In this document: piece by piece, positions 6,654 to 61,559 of the stretch | How the letters are laid out: each line of letters starts with the position of its first letter | Numbering within the stretch: position 1 is the stretch's first letter | Sequence record: DRR723986_6929 | Reading direction: 5' to 3' (one strand) | Length of the DNA stretch: 64,000 bases | The notes under the pieces: generated by a model | The model's database searches: none | What the model saw: the letters and a program-made list of their open reading frames with translations, nothing else | Told to the model about the DNA's origin: nothing | Translations under genes and position numbers: made by a program

Positions 6654-7139
6654 ATGACGAAGCAACTGAAAAAATTTATTTGGGCAGCTATGATCATATT
6701 AACGCCTGGTCCAGCCTTCGCGGATACAGAAGGTGAGAAAGCCATCAAAGAAATTATCACGGCTATTGAATATGGCTGGGAAAATGGCGATGGCACACCC
6801 TTTAGAAAGCATTTTCTGGATTTTGATGGTGCGCGCTATATTGAGTCTGGAGGCCAGAACGAAGGGCTTGACGACCTTGTGACCCATCACGTGGAACCGG
6901 AAAAGGATGCGCTCGAATATCTAAGTATCGATTTCTCAGATATTGATATCTATTTCGAAGAAGGTTTTGCCTGGGCTATTGCCGATACACGCGTCAAAGG
7001 CAAAGTCCGCAAAAGTGGCGAGGAATTTGATAAAGCAGGCCGAGAAACATTTTTGTTCCGTATGGTGGATGGTGCATGGAAGGTAGTTCACACCCATTCG
7101 TCCAGTCGCGATTATAAACCAAAGAAGCCAGCAAACTGA
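6654..7139 (+). CDS. Exported NTF2/SnoaL-like (DUF4440-like) protein
   Basis: Signal peptide; C-terminal [12 protein letters not shown]. Confidence 0.75.
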
Positions 7140-45273: not shown

Positions 45274-48168
45274 ATGCTATCCATGAGCCCCATCAAAGCC
45301 TCGCCGACCATTGCTACCCGCTATTATGTCAAAGGCGATTATTACACCAAAGGCGGAGACGAGCCCAGCGCCTGGGCGGGCTCGGGCGCTGCCGCACTCA
45401 GCCTTGAAGGCAAAATCGACGCCGATGATTTTAAGGCAATACTCGAAGGCAACTTGCCGAGCGGGCACCGGGCGGGATGGCGCGAGGCAAAGGCCGATCA
45501 TCATCCCGGTTGGGACCTAACCTTCAATGCCCCCAAAACTGTCAGCGTTCTGGCAGCACTCGGCGCTGACACCCGGCTTGTGAATGCGCATATGGAAGCT
45601 GTCGGGGACGCCCTCGGTTTTATGGAAAGCTATGCGCATGTGCGCGTACGAGCCGAAGACGGGACACTTCAACACCGCGCCACCGGTAACCTTGTGGCGG
45701 CACAGTTCACCGAGTTTTTCTCCCGCTCTCTCGATCCGCATCTGCACACCCACTGCCCGGTTGCCAACATGACGTATGACAAGGAACGCAGCGCCTGGTA
45801 TGCGCTCGACAGCTACCCGCTGTTTCGCATGAAGATGGCGGCCGGCCAGATTTACCGGAGTGCGCTTGCAGCAAGCGTCAAGGGACTGGGCTATGAAATC
45901 AATTCCGCCGCCGACACAGGCCTCTTTGATATCAAGGGCCTGCCCGACGAGCTCTTGAGTATCTTCTCGCAGCGCCGGGAGCAAATCGAAGACTATGCCA
46001 AGGAAAATGGCTGGGCGTCCGCTGCCGACTATGCCCTCGCGACACTTCTTACCCGACCAAACAAACAGATCACCAACCACCAGCAGGTCGTCGAGGATTT
46101 GGGCGAACGCGCCGGCCCGCATATGCAAAGCGTTTTTCGGCTGATTGAGCGCGCGCGCGAGCAAGCATCACCGCACAAACCGGATCCAAAACAAGCCATT
46201 GAGGCCATGCGGCACGGTCTGTATCATCTCTCGACCCGAGAAGCCGTCTTTGAACACGGCCACCTCCTCCTGGAAGCGCTCAAGGTCAGCGTCGGCGAGG
46301 TGACCGGGGATGATATTGAGAAGACACTGGTGGCCACAGAGGGCGCGGAAACCTACCATAGGACCGCGCTGCAGACTGGCGGCAGACGATTGTATCACGG
46401 ACGGACAATCGACCGATCGGTGGGCTGGGAACTGCGCCTGGCGGAGCAACTGCTCGAACACAGAGCCCGGGTTCGCCCCCTTGCGAGCCCGGATAAAATA
46501 ACAAATATTCTAAAATCCCGTTCGCTCACCGACGAGCAGGCAAAAGCGGCCAGCCATGTGCTGAGAACCCGCGACCGTATTGTCTCGGTGGTCGGTGTTG
46601 CAGGTGCTGGCAAATCCCATCTGGTCAAAAGTATCGTCGCCGCAACGCCGAGCCGGGACCATTTGGCGCTTGCGCCCACATCAACCGCCGCCATTGATCT
46701 AGGACGCAGTGCTGACATTAGAGCGCAAACACTGACGGGTTTTCTGCAAACCGGCGGCCATCATGTCTCCAGAAACTCGCTCCTGTTTGTCGACGAATCG
46801 TCCATGACCAGCACACGCCAGGCAAGCCGCCTGATGGATATTGCCCGAGAGAGGAAAATCCGCGTGATTATGATCGGCGACACCCGGCAGGCGGAAGCGA
46901 TTAATCAGGGTAAACCCTTCGCCCTGATGGTCAGGCAAGGCCTGCGCGGTCCCTTCATCATGAAAAGCTTCCGGCAAAAAAACACCAATATGCGCGAGCT
47001 CGTAGGCGCCGTTCGCAGCGGCAACATGCGGGCTGCCTTTACCATTCTTGGCAGGCGGCTTGTTTCATACGGTGCCGACGAGCTGGTGGCCAGGGTCGCC
47101 GACCACTGGATAGGTCACCCAAACCGAGACACGATACAGATAGCCGCTCTCGATAACGCCAGCAGGATTGCGCTCAACGCTGAGATACGCAGCCACCTGC
47201 AAGCTGAGGGCGTGATAGGAAAGGCGGAAAACGACTTTCATATTCTATCGTCAAAAGCACTGACACCGCACCAGCTGCGCTATCCAGACTATTATAAAAA
47301 AGGCGACGCGCTGGTTTTCCATAGTGGCAACAAAGCGCTCGGCATTGAGCGGGACAGCCGGTGGTATGTGGAAAAAACCAGCAAGCAGTCGGTCTTCCTG
47401 CTCGCCGCCGGATCGAAGATGCAACTGGCATTTAACCCTGCGAGAATCCGCAAAGACGGCATGACCCTCTATGATGTGCAGGAGCGCAGGCTTGCTATCG
47501 GTGACAAAATTCAATGGCGGCAGAATCTCAAAGGCGAAGAGGCTGTTAAAAATGGCCACACTGGCACCGTTGAAGGCCTTAAAGGCAAGCGTGCAACCAT
47601 CGCCTTCGACCACGGCGTAAAGCGTAACCTGGATCTGGCAAAGCACCCTTACTGGGATCATGGCTACGCCCTGACCGTTTACAAGCAGCAAGGCAAAACC
47701 ACACCGGTTAACTGGGTCATTGCCAATACCAGAAAAGCGGGTGAAATTACCCAGACATCCCTCTATGTAGCGCTCACCCGCGCCCAGCGGTCTGTGAAGA
47801 TTTTCACTGAAGACCGGGAGAAATTTCAGCGGGCGGTACAAATGAACCCGGGCGGCAAAACATCCGCTTTGGAGGGGCGCGGCGTCACCCCGAACTTGCA
47901 GGATGCTGAAAAACACCGCACGCCGTCAACCATCGAGTTGCTCGCCGACCGTCTGCCTGAAAACCTGCGCGCTAAAGTGCTCAATATCCTCGATTGGCGC
48001 GACGACCGGCGACGCGACCGAGAGGCTTACGAGCGTGATCCGCGGATCGAAGCAGCGGTCCATCTACACGCTGCACAAAGCAAAACCCAAGAACACGCGG
48101 GCCAAACACGCGCGGCTGATGCTGCCAAGGAAGCTGTCAAAGATATGGCAAGAGAGGCGTCACGGTGA
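45274..48168 (+). CDS. trwC: MOBF relaxase-helicase (TrwC/TraI)
   Basis: YY..DYY, DLTFNAPK, PHLHTH, GVAGAGKS, YVALTRA. Confidence 0.92.
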   Translation: MLSMSPIKASPTIATRYYVKGDYYTKGGDEPSAWAGSGAAALSLEGKIDADDFKAILEGNLPSGHRAGWREAKADHHPGWDLTFNAPKTVSVLAALGADTRLVNAHMEAVGDALGFMESYAHVRVRAEDGTLQHRATGNLVAAQFTEFFSRSLDPHLHTHCPVANMTYDKERSAWYALDSYPLFRMKMAAGQIYRSALAASVKGLGYEINSAADTGLFDIKGLPDELLSIFSQRREQIEDYAKENGWASAADYALATLLTRPNKQITNHQQVVEDLGERAGPHMQSVFRLIERAREQASPHKPDPKQAIEAMRHGLYHLSTREAVFEHGHLLLEALKVSVGEVTGDDIEKTLVATEGAETYHRTALQTGGRRLYHGRTIDRSVGWELRLAEQLLEHRARVRPLASPDKITNILKSRSLTDEQAKAASHVLRTRDRIVSVVGVAGAGKSHLVKSIVAATPSRDHLALAPTSTAAIDLGRSADIRAQTLTGFLQTGGHHVSRNSLLFVDESSMTSTRQASRLMDIARERKIRVIMIGDTRQAEAINQGKPFALMVRQGLRGPFIMKSFRQKNTNMRELVGAVRSGNMRAAFTILGRRLVSYGADELVARVADHWIGHPNRDTIQIAALDNASRIALNAEIRSHLQAEGVIGKAENDFHILSSKALTPHQLRYPDYYKKGDALVFHSGNKALGIERDSRWYVEKTSKQSVFLLAAGSKMQLAFNPARIRKDGMTLYDVQERRLAIGDKIQWRQNLKGEEAVKNGHTGTVEGLKGKRATIAFDHGVKRNLDLAKHPYWDHGYALTVYKQQGKTTPVNWVIANTRKAGEITQTSLYVALTRAQRSVKIFTEDREKFQRAVQMNPGGKTSALEGRGVTPNLQDAEKHRTPSTIELLADRLPENLRAKVLNILDWRDDRRRDREAYERDPRIEAAVHLHAAQSKTQEHAGQTRAADAAKEAVKDMAREASR

Positions 48169-48593
48169 GCGGCAAGGGGCAAAAATGTATCTCTGTCACT
48201 GAAGTGGCCGGGCTCGGCATCTGTGAGCAGCAAGTCCTCCTCGACCAGCGGTTCGGCAAGGCACGAAGTGCATGCCTTCGGGAAAAGGCAAAGAGAGGTA
48301 TCAAAGCCCATACTCAATTTGACCGGCAAGTACGGGGGATAAGCGACCCCCGCTGTTTCATTGCCAGCGCGCTGTATGGGCCCAATGCCGCCGAGACCCG
48401 GTGCTTGCGCGAGTTTAGAGACCAGTATCTCCTCGCCTACCCTGCTGGGCGCTGCTTCTGCAATCTCTATTACCGGGTGAGCCCAACCCTGATCCCGGCG
48501 CTCAGGCGCTGTCCGCATCTGGCGGGCCTGCTGCGGGCAAGCCTGAATATTGCCGTCAGCTGGATCGAGCGCAGACCCAAGGGAGGCCGCTGA
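48165..48593 (+). CDS. CFI-box-CTERM protein with Cas4-like N-terminal segment
   Basis: RCFIASALYG..LREFRDQYL; ISVTEVAGLGICEQQ. Confidence 0.75.
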   Translation: MSGKGQKCISVTEVAGLGICEQQVLLDQRFGKARSACLREKAKRGIKAHTQFDRQVRGISDPRCFIASALYGPNAAETRCLREFRDQYLLAYPAGRCFCNLYYRVSPTLIPALRRCPHLAGLLRASLNIAVSWIERRPKGGR

Positions 48594-49159
48594 TGATGGG
48601 TAACCTTTCAAGCGTCAGCGGCTATCTGCTGACTGCTCTAGTTATAGCCGTGCTTATTGTTGCCGCCCATCAAATCCGCTTGGGACGGCTACAAACCATA
48701 GTGGACGAACTGCCGCGCCAGCTTGAACGAGCGATCCTCCTCTATAGCGAACGGCTGTTGGTGATTGAGCGTCCTTTTGAACTCTTTGGCCGGGTGGATC
48801 AGGTATGGGCACGCGAGGGCGGTCAACTCATTATCGCAGATACCAAAACCCGCGAGGTTGTTCGCTATTATTACTCAGACCGGCTCCAACTCACCGGCTA
48901 TGCGTTTTTGCTAAAATATCACCCTGACACCAGAGCAGGCCGTATCGCCTCCTACGGCTTCCTGCGCATCCCGAAAGGCCAGAAAGCCATCTATATCAAA
49001 GTGCCGCTCTTGAGCGAACGGGCATACCGTGCCCACCTGCAGCATCACCGTGCGCTCACCCTCGGCAGGGCACGCCCGCGTCCTGCCACGTCGCCGCTCA
49101 TTTGTCGGAGCTGCGGCCATGTGAAGCGTTGCCCCGTTTCTCTCATCAACCCCCAATAG
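48593..49159 (+). CDS. Membrane-anchored PD-(D/E)XK Cas4-like nuclease
   Basis: GRVD, ADTK, QLTGY, CRSC-x5-C. Confidence 0.8.
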   Translation: MMGNLSSVSGYLLTALVIAVLIVAAHQIRLGRLQTIVDELPRQLERAILLYSERLLVIERPFELFGRVDQVWAREGGQLIIADTKTREVVRYYYSDRLQLTGYAFLLKYHPDTRAGRIASYGFLRIPKGQKAIYIKVPLLSERAYRAHLQHHRALTLGRARPRPATSPLICRSCGHVKRCPVSLINPQ

Positions 49160-50774: not shown

Positions 50775-51107
50775 CTAATCTTCGGTCGCAAGCTTGATTT
50801 GATCGCGCATCCGCTTGACTTCCCGCGGTGGGAGCTTTTTCAACATGGTGACAATTTCAAAGATAAGCGCGTGGGTCTCAGGTGATCGGTCATCACCGTC
50901 CACACCGTCAAACAGCTCGGAAACAGGATAGTCCAGCGCCATACAGAGCTCTTCCAGCATATCGAGCGCCGCGCCTGTAAGGCCGCGTTCAAGTTCGGAA
51001 ATAGTATCATGCGAGCGGTCCATGCTTTGCGCCAGCTGCTCTTGCGTAAGCTTGCGCTCGGTTCGCAATACTTTGATCCGACTACCAATTTTCGATTTCA
51101 AATCCAT
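50775..51107 (-). CDS. XRE-family regulator
   Basis: LTQEQLA..ISELERG. Confidence 0.85.
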   Translation of the reverse strand: MDLKSKIGSRIKVLRTERKLTQEQLAQSMDRSHDTISELERGLTGAALDMLEELCMALDYPVSELFDGVDGDDRSPETHALIFEIVTMLKKLPPREVKRMRDQIKLATED

Positions 51108-51222
51108 GAGAGATTTGTACTGGTATTCGCAATCTCTTTACATAGGATTAATCCCGATTATAATATATTATTCGGCTTATTACCGATTTATGTTCATAAC
51201 TTCACCAGTTACCATATATACA

Positions 51223-51651
51223 ATGGAAGAGTTGAGATTGGCGGGCACCAAAGGACATCAGAAAAATAACAATGTTCAGGGCGAAACAAGGATTAGTCCC
51301 GACCCTATAGATATCTATGTCGGGCTACGTGTTCGCGAAAGACGCAAGGTACTCAGCATGTCCCAGTCTTCACTTGGCGGCATAGTTGGTGTTACGTTTC
51401 AGCAAATACAAAAATATGAGCGCGGTACAAACAGGATAGGCTCAAGCAGATTGTTCCGCCTCGCAAACGCGCTCGACGTTCCCGTTTCTTACTTTTTTGA
51501 AGGCGCTGCAAATCACCTGCAAGAACCAATGGAGTCGAACTCATCGCTCTACGACCTAAAAGAAACACAAGAATTAATCGGTGTATATTATGGAATCCAG
51601 GATACTTTTGTCCGGCAGAAGGTGATGAAAGTTATTGAACTGTTGGGCTAG
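51223..51651 (+). CDS. XRE-family regulator
   Basis: VGVTFQQIQKYERGTNRI. Confidence 0.85.
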   Translation: MEELRLAGTKGHQKNNNVQGETRISPDPIDIYVGLRVRERRKVLSMSQSSLGGIVGVTFQQIQKYERGTNRIGSSRLFRLANALDVPVSYFFEGAANHLQEPMESNSSLYDLKETQELIGVYYGIQDTFVRQKVMKVIELLG

Positions 51652-51958: not shown

Positions 51959-53131
51959 TCATAGCCCTGGGTAGTATGTCTCAAGTAAGTTTCTTGTCAG
52001 CTGTTCGCCGCGAAGAGAAATTCTATCTACATCTTTTTCACTCATGGGATTAAAGTCCGTGGGATAATCGAAAGTCTCTTTACGTGGAACTAAATCGGGG
52101 GGCGGGCATGGGAGACTCTCATCTTGTTGGCCCAGGTATGGCAGAACAAATCCTTTGATCTCGCCCGCCCTTGCAAGCCTGTGCAGCAAATCAAATGACA
52201 TGGAGTGCGTCCGCCGATGAGTTGTGGATACTGTCGCTAGCATACGGGAATCCCAGTGGTAGGGGATTTGGGAGGCGTCTGGAAGTCCTTGCCCAGCCAC
52301 ACAACAGATAATAAAATCGACATCTGAGACGTTGGCGCTGAATTTAGCGTCGCGTCCAGGTAGCAAACAACTTATCCCAAGATTGTCGTATACGCCGCCA
52401 TCCGTAATAACTGTGCGATGTGAGGTTGTTTTGCCATGTTTTGAGAAGAGTTGGAATTCGTCGAATGCCGGCAAAAATACAGGGAATGCCGCTGATGCCG
52501 CTACAGCTTTGGCGACAGAAACTGGTTCCACAAGCTTCCCGAAACGCCATGATCCGCATTCTTTTGTACCATACCGAAAAGCAGTTCCTGTTCTTAGTTC
52601 AGTTGCATTAATCACGACTTCGAGATTGCGTCGCTTAACTTCTGGAATCAACTTCTTATGAAAAACGATCTCATTCAAATACTTGGCGAAGGCCGTCGTT
52701 CTGCTTGCATACCTTGGCAATGGCGCCTGCATTGCAAGAGTGGCTTTTTTGATGAGAGCGCTCTTGATACCTAACAATCCCAACAATGCAAAAAACACTG
52801 AAAGTAATTTCCCTGCCAACGCCAGCACGCCCGATGTCAAAATAGTACCAACTATCTTCGGTGTTTCAGAAGAATACAAAGTTTTTTGCGCTATACCGAT
52901 AAGCAGACCTTTTTTTAAAAGTGCTTCGGTTCGTTTTTCGAACTGATCAAAGGGTTCGTCAAAATATGCATAAAGTGCGGCAATTACGCTTCCACCAGAA
53001 ATTGAAGAGATTAGATTTACGCGGTCAAGGACTCCCTGATCATGCAGCGCTCTCATACACCCCAAGTGGAATGCAATAGCACGTGCCCCACCACCTGAAA
53101 GAGCCAATCCAATTTTAAGTTTCCTTGCCAC
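51959..53131 (-). CDS. Patatin-like phospholipase
   Basis: LSGGGARA, SISGG, ASAAFP, DGGVYDN; GTG start 1 nt after upstream stop. Confidence 0.9.
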   Translation of the reverse strand: MARKLKIGLALSGGGARAIAFHLGCMRALHDQGVLDRVNLISSISGGSVIAALYAYFDEPFDQFEKRTEALLKKGLLIGIAQKTLYSSETPKIVGTILTSGVLALAGKLLSVFFALLGLLGIKSALIKKATLAMQAPLPRYASRTTAFAKYLNEIVFHKKLIPEVKRRNLEVVINATELRTGTAFRYGTKECGSWRFGKLVEPVSVAKAVAASAAFPVFLPAFDEFQLFSKHGKTTSHRTVITDGGVYDNLGISCLLPGRDAKFSANVSDVDFIICCVAGQGLPDASQIPYHWDSRMLATVSTTHRRTHSMSFDLLHRLARAGEIKGFVLPYLGQQDESLPCPPPDLVPRKETFDYPTDFNPMSEKDVDRISLRGEQLTRNLLETYYPGL

Positions 53132-53132
53132 T

Positions 53133-55418
53133 TTACTCTTCCGATTCCTCGACACTAACCTCGCGAAATGTAAATTCTTTTCGACGAAATAGATAGTATT
53201 TCCAAACGGGTTTCGTTGCAGCATAACCAATAATCAGCATCACGACATGCCTCGGCGTGCTCTCTTGAAAATGAAGAATGTTTAGCATGGCACCAAGATC
53301 GACTTGGCTCGGTCTCGGAGGAGAAACTGGGTGTGTATGCCAGACTCCAACAAATCCAGACGAACCTTGTGTTTTTATTTTATGATGTTTTGATATTTCT
53401 GCAGTGCCTACCATTCCACACTCAAACAGTTCTGGGCTTTTCAAACTATCCGGTGGTGGCCCGCTTGCAGCATCGATCCAAATCCTTTCGATACTGTCGT
53501 CTATGGTACCAAAAAGTAGCCCACCAGTTTCATTTAGTTCACTGCCCGTTCTTCTATTTCGTGCAATTTCGCTATTGATACTAACAATTGCGCTGGGGGC
53601 AGTCAGAGCACTATAGCGATACCTAACTTCTTTAAGGCGCTTTACTGCGCCGACGGTGAAGGAAAAACTTGTGTCGCAATCTTTTGCACTAGAATACGGT
53701 GGCATGGAAACAAAGTCTGCGCTCGCTTCATTTTGCTTTAATTCTGACATTCGCACCAAGGAAATATTTAGGAGAGCTGAAGAATAAAAGGCCACATCGG
53801 AAGCCGACGCAATGAATGTTGGTTCAGAACAACCCGGTTCTGGCTGAAACAGGTTAAAGTTTTTTGAGGGCGGCCAAAAATCTTTGACAAAATGGGCCGC
53901 GCCTTCAGACTGAAGCGCTGCGATTTTCGCGCGCCGTCCGATGTCGATTGGACCACCGACAAACTTTGGCATTCGCACAGTTAACATTCCATTCTTGGCC
54001 TTTGCGCTAATCGAAAAAGACGCAATTGGCGGTGCGTTTTTTGTTTTGGAAAGCTCTTTTTCGAGTATGCTTGAAACCGTTCGTGACGCTGTGGCATCTA
54101 TAATAAAATCATACTCATCTGGTGCAAATGCATCCAACACACCGCGATGTAAGCTTTTGAATTCAGGAATAATTTCTGTTCCAAGAGCTAGTTCATCCAG
54201 CCGGAGTTTGAGGGCGCTCACCTTGGTATAGCCGATGCTATGGTCACGAAATAACTGCCGAACTAAAATGCCTGGACTAACCGTGTCATTGTCGACAAGG
54301 ACTAATTTACTTGCCCCAGCCCGTACAATGTATTCTGCCAAGAACGAACCAAGAGCTCCGCAGCCAAGCAATAGAATTCGTTTACCTTGTAGCCAGCTCG
54401 CGCCAGTATCGACGTCGCGTCGAATTGTTGTTTCATTTCTATTTTCGAATATTCGGCACCATTCAGTTTTAGCAGTAGCCGCCCATGCAATAAATTTTTT
54501 CCTTGATTTTGCAGCGTCTTCCGGACTGGAAAGGGCTTCGAATGTAGACCGCAAATCTGCCGCAGAATCTGCTGAAATTCGCCACGAAGCTAAATGCTGA
54601 TTTAGCTGCCCACCTGGTTCAACCCTGCGCATTGGCGCACCGATTATCACGAAAAGATCTTTGGCCTCTTTTAAGAAAAGAGCGTACAGACGTACAAGGC
54701 GGTAGAGCAGAGAAAATGGCATTCCTCTCTCCTCAAATTCGGTTATTAGTTTGAAAACCGTATCAGGATATTCCATTGGTAGCGGTTGGTTCAGAAGGAT
54801 TGCAATCCCACACTGAACGTCTGGTGGTAGTTCCTGGTAAAGTTCGGTCCAGCCTGTCAATTCAAAACAGTGTTGGTTCTTTTGAACTAGATGCGCTGCG
54901 CCCACCCAACTGATTTCACCTTTGGCAATATCTGGTGCATTGGCACTTGCAACAATTTTGAAATCCGAACTTGTGTATGCGATGGGCGGGTGAAGTGGAG
55001 CATTATCTGGGTCCAACTCCCCCAATGCCGCTCGGCCAAACCATTCATTTAGCCGTTGAACAAAACCATACATTCCATCCGAGGCTACCCATTCGATTTC
55101 GGACGATTGATAAAGGCAGATACTTTTACCCCACTGAACGTGAGGGAAGCCAGCAAAGCGAGAATGCGCAAAGTGTACTAAGGGTGGGGTGAGTGGAAAG
55201 TTAGGTGGCAAGTAAACCAATAGAGGCTCGCGCGCGTTAAACCGAAACCCTTTTCTCGCTCTTTTCAAATGCCCTGTTCCAACTGAGAGTCTAACTGTTA
55301 AGTATCCACTTTCATCGGCAGGGGGCTGCGAACTCACAATATCTAGGTCGCCGCCAGAGGCTTTAGAAATCTCCGTTATCTGTTCAAACGCAAGACGTTG
55401 ACCATCCGAGCATTTCAC
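53133..55418 (-). CDS. E2-E1(ThiF)-JAB fusion (Cap2/Cap3-like)
   Basis: E2 FPHV..ICLY; E1 GCGALGS, IIDATA, EPGCSEPTF; JAB ETGG..WHTHP..PSQVD. Confidence 0.9.
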   Translation of the reverse strand: MKCSDGQRLAFEQITEISKASGGDLDIVSSQPPADESGYLTVRLSVGTGHLKRARKGFRFNAREPLLVYLPPNFPLTPPLVHFAHSRFAGFPHVQWGKSICLYQSSEIEWVASDGMYGFVQRLNEWFGRAALGELDPDNAPLHPPIAYTSSDFKIVASANAPDIAKGEISWVGAAHLVQKNQHCFELTGWTELYQELPPDVQCGIAILLNQPLPMEYPDTVFKLITEFEERGMPFSLLYRLVRLYALFLKEAKDLFVIIGAPMRRVEPGGQLNQHLASWRISADSAADLRSTFEALSSPEDAAKSRKKFIAWAATAKTEWCRIFENRNETTIRRDVDTGASWLQGKRILLLGCGALGSFLAEYIVRAGASKLVLVDNDTVSPGILVRQLFRDHSIGYTKVSALKLRLDELALGTEIIPEFKSLHRGVLDAFAPDEYDFIIDATASRTVSSILEKELSKTKNAPPIASFSISAKAKNGMLTVRMPKFVGGPIDIGRRAKIAALQSEGAAHFVKDFWPPSKNFNLFQPEPGCSEPTFIASASDVAFYSSALLNISLVRMSELKQNEASADFVSMPPYSSAKDCDTSFSFTVGAVKRLKEVRYRYSALTAPSAIVSINSEIARNRRTGSELNETGGLLFGTIDDSIERIWIDAASGPPPDSLKSPELFECGMVGTAEISKHHKIKTQGSSGFVGVWHTHPVSPPRPSQVDLGAMLNILHFQESTPRHVVMLIIGYAATKPVWKYYLFRRKEFTFREVSVEESEE

Positions 55419-56560
55419 TGGCCAAAGCCGACTTTTTCGCTGGGCGGTTCGTCCGAACCACGTGATGCCGCGACAGCTGCTGCAATCTTGTCGACTGAAA
55501 CGTCGGCAGCAGCTTCTTCACCAACAAATGTGATTCCGTTTTCATCAACGTCAAAAACTAGTGGTTCGCTATCTTGACTATTCTCATGCGTACATAAGAA
55601 TTGACCCTCAGCGACTTCTTCGTAACGCCGCTTGGCTTTTGCATGCGGGGGGTTGTCGCCTTTTTTATTCTGGGCAGGTACTGCCTCACTGCTAGAAACA
55701 ATGCAACCTGCGCCAACCTGAAACTCCGCTAGGTCGTCCAACATATCCTGTTTTAACACCTCCGAACCATCTTCGTCCTGGTACATTGCCGATTTGCTAC
55801 AATGGTGGGGCGCCAAGAAAATCTTCCACGCAAGAAACTGCTCGTTTCCGGCCTCTTTAGTGAAATCGAAAATTTTTCGTATACGCGGATACGCTATGTC
55901 GCCAAAAAGCAATGCACCACCGGCGCTTGGATCATCGCCCAGCACCACCTGCATCGCGAGGCTGGTATTATTCCTATCCCCATCGCCCTCGTCCTTAAAC
56001 GGAGCATGAATAAAGGCGTTAAACTCTCCGTCGTGATCTTCACCATCAAGTTCCGTGATCGAATTTCCGGGAATTGTGAGTTTGTCTTCGGGAAACCCGT
56101 TAAACTCATCCTCTTCGAGAATACTATCGTGGCCGATCACGCGTACCTTGTCGCCTGAGTCCACTGTGCCATCTTGGTCTATCATTGCTTTGATCCGTCG
56201 TTCGGCTTCTTCTTTGAAAGCTATAGCGTCATCACAAAGATCAATATCAGATTCGAGAAAAACTCTAGGCGTGAACCAAAGTTCACCAATCATCACTCGA
56301 TCAAGGAGATCAGCAAATCCAAGGATATGATCTTGATCTGGATGAGTTAGTGCAAAGCCAGCCAAATAGGGATTTCCATCTATTTCAGGCAGCTCTTCAA
56401 CAAGCTTATCAACTAGAGAAACATGATCATCACCTGCATCGTCTGACTTGCTCAAGTCACGGAGGTCAACCTGCAAAACAACTCCATCTTTTATTACAAC
56501 TGATGTACTGTCTCCGGTGCCAACGGGCCAAAATAGAAACTGCGGGTGTTCAAACATCAT
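55415..56560 (-). CDS. ComEC-like metallo-beta-lactamase-fold hydrolase
   Basis: VGTGDS, THPDQDH, FGD, PHHCS; tail KVGFGQ. Confidence 0.85.
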   Translation of the reverse strand: MMFEHPQFLFWPVGTGDSTSVVIKDGVVLQVDLRDLSKSDDAGDDHVSLVDKLVEELPEIDGNPYLAGFALTHPDQDHILGFADLLDRVMIGELWFTPRVFLESDIDLCDDAIAFKEEAERRIKAMIDQDGTVDSGDKVRVIGHDSILEEDEFNGFPEDKLTIPGNSITELDGEDHDGEFNAFIHAPFKDEGDGDRNNTSLAMQVVLGDDPSAGGALLFGDIAYPRIRKIFDFTKEAGNEQFLAWKIFLAPHHCSKSAMYQDEDGSEVLKQDMLDDLAEFQVGAGCIVSSSEAVPAQNKKGDNPPHAKAKRRYEEVAEGQFLCTHENSQDSEPLVFDVDENGITFVGEEAAADVSVDKIAAAVAASRGSDEPPSEKVGFGQ

Positions 56561-57159
56561 AAATTCCTCATTACAGTTTACGCCATCGAAGCCTTCATGC
56601 CGTTTGGCATTGGTTTCACAACTCCAATAAACAAAGAGGCTAGAGCAGTTATATGGGTTGATAATAAAAGATGTGGGGTTAAGTAGCAAGGATTCGTCGG
56701 AATCTAACAACAAATGAAGTCACAGAGAGAATTCAAATTTTTTGGTGTTCGCAAAAGCTCAAGGCAGGTGACCATGGTAGGTTTTCATAAGTAAGCCAAG
56801 TTTCGTAAGACATCTTTTACCCGTTCCCCAAAACGACAATGTTGCTCTATTTTTCATTGCTGTAAATTTTAAAAGACGAGCGGAGCGAGGGCAACAGGTT
56901 GAATACTTTTATGCATTAGTGTTGCCGAAAATAGTTCCGCTGTTTCCGAATAATTCAGAAAATCTATATTGATTTCATTGTCCGACCACATAATTTTAAT
57001 CTACCGTTTCGACCGCGCCGCGCCGATAGTAAATTGTGTTGCTTAGAACTTAACCCAAGCCCATTTGCTGAAAACGAAACCTGTTGGAGACAATTTTTAT
57101 GTTAACCCAAATTCAGAACCCTCTCAAATTATCTCGCCGTGTAACCTATATGAACACCG

Positions 57160-57993
57160 CTAAAAATTTACTCCAGGCAAAGTACGCAGATCATCAAGGG
57201 ATACTTCGCAGGCATCAATATCTGCTTTCGGCAAGCACCCGAATGAATAACCAAACATGCTCTCTTGGAAAAACAAGTATGCCGTTGTTTTGTTGCCGTC
57301 ATACATGACTTTAAAAAGAGCGTCCGGAACGGCAATCTCCAGTCCTCCGTTTTGAATACGTTTCGGGCTTTCACTCAAAAATAGATTACCAGCTATAACC
57401 TGGAAAGCCGCTCCTTGATCAACCTCTCCTCTTGTCCTGGTTTCTAGGTCATACCATGCTCCGCCTTGGCTGTTGAAATGGGGCAACTGAGGGCTCATAT
57501 TGGTCATATAATTAATTTCAAAAACGGTGCAGGCGTCATCAATGTCTTCAATCGGCAAGCCGGGCTTATCTTCAAACTCTGCATCCAGTCCGTCGCCGTC
57601 TCGGTCACCACCAGAAACAAAGAAGGGAGCAATGTGGCCACGATGGTAGCCGCTATTCGTATAGTCACTGGTTACCACGCGCTGGCCTTCAGGGACGCTA
57701 GGGTCAGGGCGAAATCGAGACCATTTTCCAGTTCTTTTAGGTGTGTCCCTAAAATCCGGCTCAACACGCCATGCGACCCAGTTTGGTACCAACTTGTCTG
57801 AATTGAAATTAAATGCGTAAGGCCGATGAACAATAACGCTACCCGATGGTGAAAATGGGCCCAGGTGTTGCTTTGAAAGTGCCGCCTGCTCGCTAACGCT
57901 CAAGACTGGGCAATCTTGAGAATTTGCCGCTTGGCAAAAGCCCAAGGCTAATAAAGAAAATGAAATACCTATTGGCCGTATTCTTTTAAACAT
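57160..57993 (-). CDS. Exported DNA/RNA non-specific endonuclease (NucA-like)
   Basis: Signal peptide, YHRGHIAP, NMSPQ..FN..W..LE. Confidence 0.9.
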   Translation of the reverse strand: MFKRIRPIGISFSLLALGFCQAANSQDCPVLSVSEQAALSKQHLGPFSPSGSVIVHRPYAFNFNSDKLVPNWVAWRVEPDFRDTPKRTGKWSRFRPDPSVPEGQRVVTSDYTNSGYHRGHIAPFFVSGGDRDGDGLDAEFEDKPGLPIEDIDDACTVFEINYMTNMSPQLPHFNSQGGAWYDLETRTRGEVDQGAAFQVIAGNLFLSESPKRIQNGGLEIAVPDALFKVMYDGNKTTAYLFFQESMFGYSFGCLPKADIDACEVSLDDLRTLPGVNF

Positions 57994-58103: not shown

Positions 58104-59213
58104 ATGTCTAGAAATATAATAATTTGCTGTGATGGTACAGGTAATGAGATAGAAGCAGACCTTTCGAATGTCCTTAAACTCTATCAAATTGCTGATCGCA
58201 ATGATGGTCAGATTATTTTTTATGATTCTGGTGTGGGCACTATTGGTCGCCAGAACGGCTGGACCAAGTTCAGAGATAAAATAAAAGAAACAGTCACTGG
58301 CGCTACAGGGCAAGGGTTGGACCAAAATGTCCTTGATGCCTATAAGTTTCTCGCCAAAATCTACCAAGATGGTGACAAGATATTTCTCTTTGGGTTTAGT
58401 CGCGGAGCATATACAGCGCGCGTATTAGCCGGTTTTATTAGAGCCTTAGGCCTATTACACCCTGAGCAAATGAACTTGGCGAATTACGCCCTAAAATGGT
58501 ATAAACAGATTTCCATTACTGGTAATTTTGAAAATATCGGGCGCTTTTCGGAAGTGACAAGAGCACGAGATGTTACCATACACTTTCTGGGTGTGTGGGA
58601 TACAGTGAGTTCGGTCTTTCGACCTAGCGGCAAGCTGTTCTCATTAGGCCTCACCAGTAAAAAGTATCCGTTCACGTTGAACAATGATGCAATCAAAATT
58701 GTCCGTCATGCTGTTGCCATAGATGAAAAACGACGTGTCTTTCCCGCTGATTTGTGGGGTCCTACCCGGAAGTTTAAATCCCATCGGTTCGATAAAACAG
58801 CTGAAGTCCAGGATGTTAAAGAAGTTTGGTTTGCTGGTGTACATAGTGATATTGGTGGAGGTTACCCTGAAGCTGAGAGTGGCCTCGCGAAGCTGCCTTT
58901 GAAGTGGATGGTAGTTGAGGCTGTCTCCGCAGGCTTAGAAATATCGAAGCGACGCTACAACAGATTGGTGCTCGGGACCTCCAGTAGTCGCAGTAAAAGA
59001 GTATATATGGCACCCGACCCGCATGGGATGCAACACAACTCATTTAAGCTTCCAACTAGTGCTTTCGGCTCTCGACTAAGGGTTATTCCTGAAAATACAA
59101 TGGTTCATGAGTCTGTAAAAACAAGACTGGGTGAAAACAAAAACGATTACAATCCAAAAAATCTCAACACGGATCAAGTCGAGTGGGAGTCGGACATAGA
59201 CTTGACTGGCTAA
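58104..59213 (+). CDS. DUF2235 (Tle1-like) alpha/beta hydrolase
   Basis: CCDGTGN, GFSRG, GVWDTV, WFAGVHSDIGG. Confidence 0.9.
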   Translation: MSRNIIICCDGTGNEIEADLSNVLKLYQIADRNDGQIIFYDSGVGTIGRQNGWTKFRDKIKETVTGATGQGLDQNVLDAYKFLAKIYQDGDKIFLFGFSRGAYTARVLAGFIRALGLLHPEQMNLANYALKWYKQISITGNFENIGRFSEVTRARDVTIHFLGVWDTVSSVFRPSGKLFSLGLTSKKYPFTLNNDAIKIVRHAVAIDEKRRVFPADLWGPTRKFKSHRFDKTAEVQDVKEVWFAGVHSDIGGGYPEAESGLAKLPLKWMVVEAVSAGLEISKRRYNRLVLGTSSSRSKRVYMAPDPHGMQHNSFKLPTSAFGSRLRVIPENTMVHESVKTRLGENKNDYNPKNLNTDQVEWESDIDLTG

Positions 59214-60457: not shown

Positions 60458-61204
60458 TTATATTAAGTTATCATCTGAGTTTAAACGTGGATCGCCAAAA
60501 TCACTCGCGAGGAATTCTAAAGACGCTTTTGGAAAATCGCGTACAGCAATCACACGGTCCTGGCGTGTATAGATGTTCCAGGATTGTCTCTGGTTCGAGC
60601 CTTTTGCCGCAAACGCTATTAATGACAGTACGTTCATATTGCTTCCGGCCTGAGGGCACCTCACTGAGCGACTAATAATGACATCCACTTCAACTTGCCG
60701 AGCAGCATCAGCAAGTGCCTGAGTTGCTGAATAATCTGACTTGTCGCTATATCGTGGATCATCTCCGAAAGGCGGTTTCGTGATATCCAGCGCTCTATCG
60801 GTTTCGATAGACGCTTGAAATGCCGTATGTTCACAAAGTGCTTCAGGATATATAACACCTTCAGCCTGATTGAAGAACAATAGCCTATAAAATGCTATTT
60901 CTGCCATAGCTGTATGAAGATCGCGCGAACTATAAAATACGCCTTCCCGTTGGCTCGCGCGCCTAAACCGCGATCCGTATGGGTACGGAAAATACCGGTA
61001 AGGTGTGGCAATAAGATAATCGAAGCCTGCCGCTTCCTCTGGGAAACTCGGTTTTACAGCCTCTAGCATATCCTCAAGGATTTCTTGATCTTCAAGGCTC
61101 CCTGCCAGTTTCATCGTTGAAGAGTTATATTGTCCTTCTACAACTCGCCAAACATTGCCCTTAAACCGAGTTAAGCTAGATTTTAGCTCTGTAAGTATCG
61201 ACAT
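60458..61204 (-). CDS. RES-domain toxin
   Basis: WRVVE, GSRF..GVFY, AEIAFY, SVR. Confidence 0.9.
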   Translation of the reverse strand: MSILTELKSSLTRFKGNVWRVVEGQYNSSTMKLAGSLEDQEILEDMLEAVKPSFPEEAAGFDYLIATPYRYFPYPYGSRFRRASQREGVFYSSRDLHTAMAEIAFYRLLFFNQAEGVIYPEALCEHTAFQASIETDRALDITKPPFGDDPRYSDKSDYSATQALADAARQVEVDVIISRSVRCPQAGSNMNVLSLIAFAAKGSNQRQSWNIYTRQDRVIAVRDFPKASLEFLASDFGDPRLNSDDNLI

Positions 61205-61559
61205 ACGCTACTGTATCGACTAGGCCTTTTATGCTCTTTATGAGTTCAATCGGTGTCTTCCTCAATACCTTATTGGGCACCCGAAGCCAGCTCCGACTGG
61301 TCCGATCATCACCGCCAGAAATCGCGTCGATACCGCGAAACAAACGCACAAATTCAAGGCCTAGTTCAAACTCCTTTTTATTCGACCGCAAGGTATAGCT
61401 CCCGCTATTCATCCTGCTGATCGTCGCCATTGACAAACCCAAGACTTCAGAAAGCTCGGACGCCTTGATATTTAGGTGGCCAGCAGCTCTACAAACAGCA
61501 TCGGTTAAGACCTGTTCCTGCTTAGTTGCTGAGACCTCAGTTTTCTCGTTCTGTTTCAT
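61176..61559 (-). CDS. Xre/MbcA/ParS antitoxin
   Basis: LGLSMATISR HTH; WL..PN..L..TP. Confidence 0.9.
   Translation of the reverse strand: MKQNEKTEVSATKQEQVLTDAVCRAAGHLNIKASELSEVLGLSMATISRMNSGSYTLRSNKKEFELGLEFVRLFRGIDAISGGDDRTSRSWLRVPNKVLRKTPIELIKSIKGLVDTVAYVDTYRAKI

Follow-up and report, generated by a model that had tools for sequence, protein, structure and literature searches.

In type II CBASS, ubiquitin-type machinery conjugates a whole enzyme and not a small Ubl. A rule for such tails, derived from 1,583 cGAS C-termini, is given in the available part of Jenson 2023 (PMC10097602): a terminal Gly or Ala, found only in operons with both Cap2 and Cap3. A second group of operons, type 6a, is described as "usually two genes" in the excerpted text of Iyer et al. 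2006 (PMC1779556). It was named 6A-MBL and tested as an anti-phage system by van den Berg 2024, as stated in excerpts of two citing works (PMC13276650; 10.1101/2025.09.30.679545). In the excerpt of Ye et al. 2024 (PMC11601596), "MBL pathways" conjugate their enzyme to unknown targets via the fused E2-E1; conjugation of the MBL enzyme by a fused E2-E1 is the existing working model of the field and is not new here. No demonstration of MBL conjugation, trimming or thioester formation was found in the literature surveyed, Ledvina 2023 (Nature) and van den Berg 2024 lying outside it, and the Ledvina 2022 bioRxiv preprint does not mention MBL, lactamase, hydrolase or non-CBASS systems. In this study, we describe the gene anatomy, family membership and protein folds of one such operon, the disorder of its MBL tail, the conservation of tail and catalytic residues, and the operon and fusion statistics of its relatives. 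The statistics on patatin adjacency and fusion, together with a 4-TM-like alternative to patatin, are what this analysis adds.

The operon lies in the cargo region of a conjugative element, within the window (the whole stretch of 64,000 nucleotides from record DRR723986_6929 that was analysed). It is a tight, translationally coupled operon of three genes on the minus strand, in the order MBL, E2-E1-JAB fusion and patatin, with the following genes and domains:

55415..56560, minus strand: gene of the MBL-fold enzyme, the 6A-MBL "enzyme" (open reading frame, start, ribosome-binding site; NF058524; fold model)
53133..55418, minus strand: E2-E1-JAB triple-module gene "cap2_3", 761 aa (Pfam Prok-E2_A, ThiF and Prok-JAB; NF058523)
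54954..55331, minus strand: E2 (UBC-like) domain, residues ~30-155, with H93 and catalytic Cys101 at 55116-55118 (Prok-E2_A, 2e-23)
53619..54461, minus strand: E1 adenylation domain, residues ~320-600 (ThiF, 2.2e-19, Pfam 343-453)
53169..53612, minus strand: JAB/JAMM peptidase domain, residues ~603-750 (Prok-JAB, 4.2e-09, Pfam 627-731; PADLOC JAB, 2.4e-20)
51959..53131, minus strand: patatin-like phospholipase gene, 390 aa (Pfam Patatin, 3.7e-18; likely GTG start)

The MBL stop and the GTG start of the ligase gene share 4 nt (GTGA), and the likely GTG start of the patatin gene, at 53131, lies 1 nt past the JAB stop. The ligase reached 365.7 bits against the NF058523 equivalog (cut-off 320). 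The MBL protein reached 280.8 bits against the NF058524 equivalog (cut-off 220), a model that spans MBL residues 10-342 only, so that 6A-MBL membership is uninformative on the tail. By these sequence assignments the operon is a 6A-MBL anti-phage system, type 6a of Iyer et al. 2006, and a relative of type II CBASS. As in 6A-MBL generally, an MBL-fold protein adjoins a single polypeptide with E2, E1 and JAB in that order, carried by a mobile element; in contrast to the two genes usual in the excerpted description (PMC1779556), a tightly coupled third gene, the patatin, is present here. A single-protein query gave no relatives, and an alignment-based scan recovered 80 related loci. The ligase gene is directly downstream of the MBL gene and co-oriented with it in 77 of these, the remaining three being contig ends. 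The family comprised 2,791 proteins with E <= 1e-3 among 8,000 candidates scored, and in an even sample of 401 genomes from one phylum, 10 had 6A-MBL.

The MBL protein probably starts at the ATG at 56560, which is preceded by a GAGGAA ribosome-binding site and gives 381 aa plus a stop; the open reading frame as listed reaches further up, to a TTG codon at 56713. The AlphaFold2 model, based on a 35-sequence alignment, had a mean pLDDT of 84.5, with the MBL fold confident to about residue 345, and the metal-site motifs T72-H-P-D-x-D-H78, H185, D221 and H252-H253 were invariant in the same alignment. The best fold match of the body was the ComEC MBL domain (9ic4, E 3.2e-13), and other matches were 2bib and 1wra (Pce/CbpE, 6e-10 to 4e-9). 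The ComEC nuclease domain and the Pce/CbpE esterase share the H-x-D-x-D-H-type metal motif with the MBL protein, whereas their sequence similarity to it is marginal and they lack a Gly-ended conjugation tail. No solved relative was recovered from the PDB by sequence, the best E values of the MBL profile being 0.18-0.4 (ComEC ~0.4). In PADLOC, the protein matched the defence-associated MBL models RTasMBL (3.6e-08) and PDC-M48B (4.7e-07) weakly. The MBL protein is predicted to be a ComEC/Pce-like binuclear-metal phosphodiesterase, with its predicted active site intact.

The C-terminus of this protein reads ...ARGSDEPPSEKVGFG-Q over its last ~35 residues, and the end of the open reading frame at 55415-55520 on the minus strand reads ...AAAVAASRGSDEPPSEKVGFGQ (approximately residues 347-381 plus the stop). 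A first-pass annotation of this DNA had proposed a flexible tail after the MBL fold that ends in FG-Q, and both the reading frame and the model bear this out, residues from about 347 onwards being modelled as disordered. Successive 10-residue blocks from residue 351 had mean pLDDT values of 41, 52, 45 and 33; the segments 350-359 and 376-381 were below 50, and a short helix was modelled at 358-366 only. The features of the tail are as follows:

55418..55522, minus strand: disordered C-terminal tail, residues 347-381 (low pLDDT)
55421..55462, minus strand: tail motif 367-380, R-G-S-D-E-P-P-S-E-K-V-G-F-G (conservation, codon usage)
55421-55423, minus strand: Gly380, the proposed conjugation residue (invariant in the 35-sequence alignment)
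55418..55420, minus strand: Gln381, the single residue past Gly380, proposed to be trimmed by JAB (extension variable in homologues)
55415-55417, minus strand: MBL stop codon (translation of the open reading frame)

R367, G368 and G380 are invariant in the 35-sequence alignment, and conservation is 90% or higher at P373, V377 and G378, while the stretch after G380 has 0-6 residues and varies in sequence across homologues. Tails were scored by the presence of [FYH][GA] within the last 8 residues. Such an end was found in 119 of 121 close homologues, the two misses being truncated proteins of 309 and 335 aa, in all 79 complete tails from the 80 related loci (the remaining one is cut by a contig end), and in 56 of the 71 distant representatives that are 340 aa or longer; in the control, non-MBL open reading frames of 200 aa or more on the same DNA, the frequency was 10.7% (76/712). 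Several of the 15 distant representatives without the motif in the last 8 residues have xG slightly further in or seem frameshifted. Six others end in [FY]A with zero extension, which matches the Gly/Ala rule for cGAS C-termini as worded in the available part of Jenson 2023 (PMC10097602). Additionally, eight more systems from the even sample of 401 genomes, at 27-29% identity, have HG or AG near the end, with 0-6 residues after it. The terminal Gly, sometimes Ala, is kept in relatives at 27-40% identity, and the residue before it is clade-dependent (F or Y here; H, Y or A further out). The first-pass annotation had named a lack of FG conservation as what would refute it, and this refutation did not come about: the Gly is invariant in the clade. 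The penultimate Phe is unconserved outside the clade. The likeness to Cap2-conjugated CD-NTases drawn there, a small Gly/Ala end after a flexible tail, was recovered here, with the rule taken from the excerpt of PMC10097602.

Among 67 distinct tail DNAs, the terminal Gly was encoded by GGA in 22, GGT in 18, GGG in 14 and GGC in 13, and positions -2 (Gly), -3 (Val) and -7 (Pro) also used all four codons. The use of all four codons at the terminal Gly indicates that selection acts on the protein. Among the 119 close homologues, 25 have a tail that stops at Gly itself, as do 15 of the 79 loci. Most tails carry 1-6 residues beyond it and would therefore need pre-processing; trimming is predicted from the sequences to be needed in about four-fifths of members, and the ragged extension of 0-6 residues fits trimming by a peptidase.

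The model of the ligase had a pLDDT of 87.4, and its top Foldseek match was the Cap2-CdnD02 complex 7to3 (E 5.4e-25, TM 0.72, target-normalised). The PADLOC E1-E2 model PDLC00857 matched at 8e-83, and against the NCBIfam Cap3 model the ligase was below the cut-off (26.8 vs 200 bits). By sequence, the solved relatives of the E1 were MoeB (2.8e-08, the best), MccB (2.5e-05) and ThiF (5e-04). Landmarks of the E1, taken from invariant columns, include G352-x-G-A-x-G357, D376, R387, Q388 and K399, together with the mobile loop E527-P-G-C530-S531 (Cys530 at 53829-53831), and the loop 522-533 has low pLDDT in the model. The JAMM residues are E630, H694-x-H696, S704 and D707. None of E2 His93 and Cys101, E1 Cys530, the ATP loop and the JAMM residues varies among the 40 ligases compared. 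Even in systems whose MBL protein already ends at Gly (e.g. L001, L028, L035, L041, L044 and L079), the JAMM residues are kept without change, which suggests that the JAB domain does more than trimming. A search for a natural MBL-E2-E1-JAB fusion gave three longer proteins, none usable, as one had a sigma-like N-terminal extension and two looked frameshifted or of low complexity. In locus L017, a second E2-E1-JAB-patatin set is preceded by a TIR protein, which was considered as an analogous conjugated enzyme and rejected; this protein ends in ...ERIMQN, not in Gly/Ala, and lies 289 nt from the ligase gene.

Judged from these sequences, the tail is most likely a handle for attaching the whole hydrolase to a target via the neighbouring ubiquitin-type enzyme. 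The JAB domain would clip Gln381 and expose Gly380, the E1 would adenylate Gly380 and take it as a thioester on Cys530, and transfer from E1 Cys530 to E2 Cys101 would follow; the whole hydrolase would then be ligated through Gly380 to an amine on a target, for which a phage protein, a lipid and the patatin are candidates. The JAB domain may also reverse the conjugates, as Cap3 does, and the last 14 tail residues would form a conserved recognition motif that ends in Gly380. The conserved tail end, the four Gly codons and the invariant catalytic residues of the ligase together make removal of Gln381 by the JAB domain and subsequent E1/E2 ligation through Gly380 well supported comparatively; the same course had been put forward in the first-pass annotation, and the Cap2 fold match also argues for it. 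We infer trimming, adenylation, the thioester and ligation, and likewise the patatin link and any effect of conjugation on the MBL activity. The explanation as a whole, namely a coupled 6A-MBL operon, Gln381 trimming and Gly380 ligation by homology with Cap2/Cap3 and a CD-NTase, and a patatin effector, is in our judgement probably correct.

The invariant ligase residues and the tails that end at Gly also bear on a reading without conjugation, in which the tail is a JAB-processed pro-sequence or a non-covalent docking peptide, and cleavage or binding activates the MBL nuclease. MBL-fold nucleases activated by a partner protease, the trypsin-MBL pairs, exist in other defence systems according to the excerpted texts of PMC12799240 and 10.1101/2025.09.03.673762; the weak matches to RTasMBL and PDC-M48B and the fusion of a JAB peptidase into the partner protein agree with such activation. 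However, the 25 close homologues and 15 loci that end at Gly leave nothing to cleave, the Gly/Ala end is a specific E1-substrate signature, and a protease-only mechanism would not need the E1 ATP loop, Cys530 and E2 Cys101 that are invariant in 40/40 ligases. We consider this reading unlikely, and we reject trimming alone as a mechanism for the family in general, since one member in five has nothing to trim. It is very unlikely that the E1 adenylates the tail Gly for non-conjugative chemistry, with the tail as carrier or modified product of thiocarboxylate formation (ThiS/MoaD) or nucleotidylation (MccA). The best solved sequence relatives of the E1, MoeB and also MccB and ThiF, would suit such chemistry, but every member carries a fused E2 in which His93 and Cys101 are invariant, the E2-E1 fold matches Cap2 7to3 at 5.4e-25 vs ~1e-10 for ThiF/MccB, and a rhodanese or sulfur-transfer gene was found neither in the operon nor among its neighbours.

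The protein bearing the activated C-terminus might also be another one, with the MBL protein serving as target or adaptor and not as modifier, since the patatin and the ligase have free C-termini as well. Those C-termini are unconserved, though, and without a Gly/Ala end (EE for the ligase and GL for the patatin in the window), so that the signature is found on the MBL tail only; furthermore, the operon has no beta-grasp Ubl gene, and none is listed for type 6a in the excerpt of Iyer et al. 2006 (PMC1779556). We regard such a role of the MBL protein as highly improbable. Conservation of the tail as DNA, on account of an overlap with the ligase gene's ribosome-binding site and start, has next to no chance of being the right account. 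The MBL stop does overlap or abut the ligase start in most loci (offset from the stop to the first aligned residue about -14 to +19 nt), as the GTGA of the window illustrates. Yet the Gly codon has no fixed spacing to the start of the next gene, loci with 76-92 nt between the two genes (L025 and L068) still have the motif, and the near-even use of the four Gly codons, with all four likewise used at -2, -3 and -7, effectively refutes this explanation.

Attachment of the whole hydrolase through Gly380 would make the 6A-MBL family the second large case of whole-enzyme conjugation, after type II CBASS. The two have in common a Cap2-like E2-E1 with a Cap3-like JAB, a patatin (such as CapV) or membrane protein as effector, and a disordered tail ending in Gly/Ala on an enzyme and not on a beta-grasp Ubl. 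They differ in that the CD-NTase is absent here and the tail-bearing enzyme is an MBL-fold hydrolase, in that E2-E1 and JAB form one polypeptide, and in that most tails have 1-6 residues after Gly; in addition, the 6A-MBL system is not known to have a cyclic-nucleotide signal. No nucleotidyltransferase was found among the three operon proteins (Pfam and PADLOC) or the 13 neighbouring open reading frames (Pfam only). The Bil system (BilABCD) likewise has a JAB that pre-processes the modifier to a C-terminal Gly and also cleaves conjugates, according to the available part of PMC10557695; there, however, a true beta-grasp Ubl is the modifier and the canonical E1 and E2 are proteins of their own, whereas the putative modifier here is a 381-aa enzyme with an MBL fold, and no beta-grasp reading frame occurs in the operon. 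Gly380 with the 14-residue motif, Cys101, Cys530 and Glu630/His694 provide the comparative handles.

The patatin has an invariant GGG-x-R (13-17), Ser45 and Asp244-Gly-Gly dyad in 26 of 26 sequences, and its matches to the PADLOC CBASS phospholipase models were weak and partial (1.2e-4). Of 70 related loci, 62 have a patatin after the ligase and 28 have the two fused, and a 4-TM-like protein takes the place of the patatin in other loci. The patatin would be a membrane-directed effector arm, for which sister systems have a version fused to the ligase or a 4-TM-like substitute. By sequence prediction, the core pair is nearly always accompanied by a membrane-directed third component, namely a 4-TM-like protein or a patatin, the latter as a gene of its own or fused to the ligase. 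The almost constant presence of this component argues that the MBL enzyme acts upstream and is regulated, and is not the sole killer, and the component points to the membrane as a place to seek the conjugation target.

A lipid was raised as a possible cGAS target in the excerpted text of Jenson 2023 (PMC10097602). The hydrolase may be lipidated in the manner of Atg8, with Gly380, once freed by JAB trimming, joined by the Atg7/Atg3-like E2-E1 to a membrane aminophospholipid, a DNA-degrading nuclease of ComEC type parked at the inner membrane where phage DNA enters, and the patatin creating, remodelling or releasing the anchor. We think this quite unlikely; if true, it would be the first case in bacteria of ubiquitin-type machinery lipidating a protein. 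The system shares with Atg8-Atg7-Atg3 the single C-terminal Gly after peptidase trimming, as predicted here, but its link to the membrane consists of the third gene only, a phospholipase or TM-like protein. The available part of PMC10557695 likens Cap2-type E2-E1 proteins to Atg7 with Atg3/Atg10, and the Atg7 structures 4gsk and 3vh1 were among the fold matches of the ligase.

The window carries an operon on the minus strand in which an MBL-fold protein gene is followed by genes for an E2-E1-JAB fusion (hereafter the ligase) and a patatin-like phospholipase:

56560 (-), ATG start of the MBL gene, with a GAGGAA ribosome-binding site in front; product 381 aa
55415-55417 (-), stop codon of the MBL gene; the ORF ends in ...KIAAAVAASRGSDEPPSEKVGFGQ
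53133-55418 (-), ligase ORF, 761 aa, GTG start, TAA stop; Pfam domains Prok-E2_A (residues 30-155), ThiF (residues 343-453) and Prok-JAB (residues 627-731)
51959-53131 (-), patatin-like phospholipase gene; GTG start at 53131, 1 nt past the ligase TAA stop

The MBL ORF as listed opens with a TTG at 56713 (-), and the 381-aa product of the shorter alternative, ATG 56560, agrees with homologues in length and N-terminus. The MBL stop and the ligase GTG overlap by 4 nt (GTGA) and, given the tight ligase/patatin junction, the three genes are translationally coupled. The MBL matched NCBIfam equivalog NF058524 ("anti-phage 6A-MBL system MBL-fold protein"; 280.8 bits, cut-off 220) and the ligase matched NF058523 ("anti-phage 6A-MBL system cap2_3 protein"; 365.7 bits, cut-off 320); the locus is a further member of this already named system. 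6A-MBL is cited as a validated anti-phage system in the portions consulted of PMC13276650 and 10.1101/2025.09.30.679545, and the reading of the first-pass annotation, in which JAB removes a terminal Gln and E1/E2 ligate the whole hydrolase via the preceding Gly, corresponds to the model with which the field already works. The NF058524 match spans MBL residues 10-342 only, so the C-terminal tail lies outside the model.

AlphaFold2 modelling with a 35-sequence alignment gave the MBL a mean pLDDT of 84.5 and a confident fold up to about residue 345, past which 10-residue blocks averaged 41, 52, 45 and 33 and only a single short helix (358-366) was modelled; the flexible tail claimed earlier beyond the fold was therefore borne out. 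In the same alignment R367, G368 and G380 were invariant, P373, V377 and G378 were at least 90% conserved, and G380 was followed by 0-6 residues of variable sequence. Scored as [FYH][GA] inside the last 8 residues, the tail motif was present in 119 of 121 close homologues (the two misses are truncated proteins of 309 and 335 aa), in 79/79 complete tails from 80 related loci (the remaining tail leaves its contig), and in 56 of 71 distant representatives (340 aa or longer) drawn from the 577 proteins that HMMER, run exhaustively, retrieved at E <= 1e-3; six of these 56 end in [FY]A without extension. By comparison, control ORFs with 200 aa or more, taken from the same DNA, contained it in 76 of 712 cases (10.7%). 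The extension past the motif was 0 residues in 25 close homologues, 1 in 66, 2 in 6, 3 in 20, 4 in 1 and 6 in 1, and among the 79 locus tails 0 in 15, 1 in 10, 2 in 14, 3 in 21, 4 in 18 and 6 in 1, where that of locus L046 was measured from its real FG since a later HA is a chance match. The family occurred above the curated cut-off in 10 of 401 genomes sampled evenly from one phylum, and eight of these 10 systems, only 27-29% identical to the window MBL, finish with HG or AG and a further 0-6 residues. The tail observation was confirmed, and its interpretation passed all the comparative tests that were run. A homologous protein of 975 aa (P0272), a 6A-MBL-type enzyme with an N-terminal extension of ~590 residues bearing sigma-70 region-4-type Pfam domains, still ends in ...PVGFGAR.

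The ligase was compared across 40 E2-E1-JAB sequences from related loci (mean column identity 43%). In all 40, E2 His93 and Cys101, the E1 nucleotide site (G352-x-G-A-x-G357, D376, R387, Q388, K399), the E1 cysteine loop (E527-P-G-C530-S531) and the JAMM residues (E630, H694-x-H696, S704, D707) were invariant. The model had a pLDDT of 87.4, and its single long low-confidence loop, 522-533 around Cys530, fits the expected mobility of an E1 cysteine loop. The top structural match was Cap2 as solved in complex with CdnD02 (7to3; 634 columns aligned at E 5.4e-25, target-normalised TM 0.72), followed by BubCD, UBA5, SUMO-E1 and Atg7 at about 1e-11 to 1e-10. The JAMM residues were unchanged even in loci whose MBL already ends at Gly (L001, L028, L035, L041, L044, L079), which means that JAB has a role beyond trimming, most simply deconjugation, like Cap3. 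A search for longer proteins found no natural MBL-ligase fusion.

We consider it likely that the tail is a conjugation handle. Beside the anatomy, family, folds, tail disorder, tail and catalytic-residue conservation, and operon and fusion statistics, which were established directly, the mechanism is drawn by homology with Cap2, Cap3 and the CD-NTase of CBASS, as described in the portion consulted of Jenson 2023 (PMC10097602). According to it, the C-terminal Gly of cGAS is joined to Cap2 as a thioester, conservation of Gly or Ala is confined to operons that have both Cap2 and Cap3, the penultimate residue is variable, and Cap3 cleaves at the cGAS C-terminus. By analogy, JAB would remove Gln381, E1 would adenylate Gly380, a thioester would form on Cys530 and then on Cys101, and the 381-aa hydrolase would be ligated onto an amine, a ligation that JAB would reverse. 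A phage protein, a lipid and the patatin, all named in the first-pass annotation, are the candidate targets. In contrast to CBASS, about four-fifths of 6A-MBL tails would require prior trimming, which parallels BilA of the Bil ubiquitination system, as far as the part consulted of PMC10557695 describes it. The quantified tail rule, trimming need included, is a modest addition here.

The conserved tail could alternatively be a pro-peptide or an element for docking only, which we regard as unlikely, and it is quite improbable either that it undergoes ThiS/MccA-like C-terminal chemistry or, to much the same degree, that the MBL is the target and not the modifier. Least credible is conservation at the DNA level, on the view that the tail sequence serves the overlapping downstream gene as its ribosome-binding site. 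Across 67 distinct DNA sequences of the tail, GGA (22), GGT (18), GGG (14) and GGC (13) all encode the terminal Gly, and all four codons are likewise in use for Gly at -2, Val at -3 and Pro at -7; this contradicts the ribosome-binding-site account, which was ruled out, and conservation therefore acts on the protein. This test of protein-level selection is a second modest addition.

With regard to the enzyme that would be conjugated, the metal ligands T72-H-P-D-x-D-H78, H185, D221 and H252-H253 were invariant in the 35-sequence alignment, and the MBL is therefore predicted to be an active hydrolase. Its nearest fold was the ComEC beta-lactamase-like nuclease domain (9ic4, E 3.2e-13), followed by pneumococcal phosphorylcholine esterase Pce/CbpE (2bib and 1wra, 6e-10 to 4e-9) and by ElaC/RNase Z-like and RNase J proteins; no sequence relative was found among solved structures. 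Our best guess is a phosphodiesterase, probably a nuclease.

The ligase gene lay directly 3' of the MBL gene in 77 of 80 loci, the other three reaching contig ends. Among the 70 loci in which the ligase is complete and 1 kb or more lies past it, a patatin directly followed in 62, and its GGG-x-R, Ser45 and Asp244-Gly-Gly were invariant (26/26 aligned sequences). In 28 of the 62, ligase and patatin form a single ORF of about 1,100-1,190 aa starting near locus position 7100 (L025, L039, L042, L043, L046-L049, L051-L053, L055, L057-L063, L070-L074, L076, L077, L079, L080); these Rosetta-stone fusions argue that phospholipase and ligase are directly and physically linked. In L023:9330-11830, counted among the 62, an IS110-family transposase gene splits the patatin in two. 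Of the eight loci with no adjacent patatin, four (L031, L038, L050, L068) encode a protein of 162-264 aa with 3-4 hydrophobic segments, one (L037:2315-5791) has a 1,158-aa ligase in which a C-terminal calcineurin-like phosphoesterase (Metallophos, 3.6e-06) replaces the patatin, and three had no recognisable partner. A similar TM-like protein was present in 6/6 distant-clade loci scanned downstream (L111, L113-L117; L081 and L112 were left out), and three of the six also carry a second MBL gene, an ordinary Pfam Lactamase_B, 3' of the ligase.

Partner genes 3' of the ligase (locus:positions)
L031:9412-10206, TM-like
L038:4047-4535, TM-like
L050:9464-10156, TM-like
L068:9390-10145, TM-like
L111:4863-5729, TM-like
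L113:3737-4534, TM-like
L114:3659-4294, TM-like
L115:3763-4509, TM-like
L116:1443-2237 (-), TM-like
L117:3616-4239, TM-like
L111:3802-4866, second Lactamase_B
L113:4568-5467, second Lactamase_B
L115:4400-5380, second Lactamase_B

The ten TM-like proteins (162-288 aa; 2-4 hydrophobic segments, all such counts being from a simple Kyte-Doolittle scan) matched no Pfam family, most share an N-terminal D-x-Y-x-x-x-A-R-L-x-P-A-L-L-like stretch, and they look like one family of 6A-MBL membrane partners. This near-constant third component, patatin (often fused) or TM-like protein, is our third modest addition. As CBASS combines a constant core (CD-NTase with Cap2/Cap3) with an exchangeable CapV or TM effector, so the 6A-MBL core is joined by a swappable membrane-directed partner, an analogy suggesting that the MBL enzyme may be the upstream regulated component and the patatin the killing arm.

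Tandem ligase sets occur in L017:1127-9454. The first comprises an E2-E1-JAB of 744 aa, preceded by a TIR-domain protein and followed by a patatin of 409 aa, and directly behind it come an MBL and another E2-E1-JAB; the TIR protein lacks a Gly/Ala end, and 289 nt separate its gene from that of its ligase. L119:1330-6018 is, like L023, broken by an insertion: about 2.4 kb, holding two ORFs of 185 and 526 aa on the opposite strand, lie within its ligase.

The operon in the window has the following neighbours:

45274-48168, TrwC relaxase(-helicase), mobile-element neighbour
48593-49159, PD-(D/E)XK (Cas4-like) nuclease, mobile-element neighbour
60458-61559, RES/Xre toxin-antitoxin pair, mobile-element neighbour
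57160-57993 (-), non-specific DNA/RNA endonuclease of secreted type (Endonuclease_NS 3.4e-29), signal-peptide-like N-terminus, mobile-element neighbour
58104-59213 (+), T6SS Tle1-like phospholipase domain protein (1e-82), mobile-element neighbour

The first three, on its flanks, mark the locus as the cargo region of a conjugative element. The Endonuclease_NS and Tle1-like genes are divergently arranged upstream of the operon. Just 3' of the patatin gene, two Xre-type helix-turn-helix ORFs (50775-51651) lie on opposite strands, overlapping at 51022-51107, and may regulate either the operon or the mobile element.
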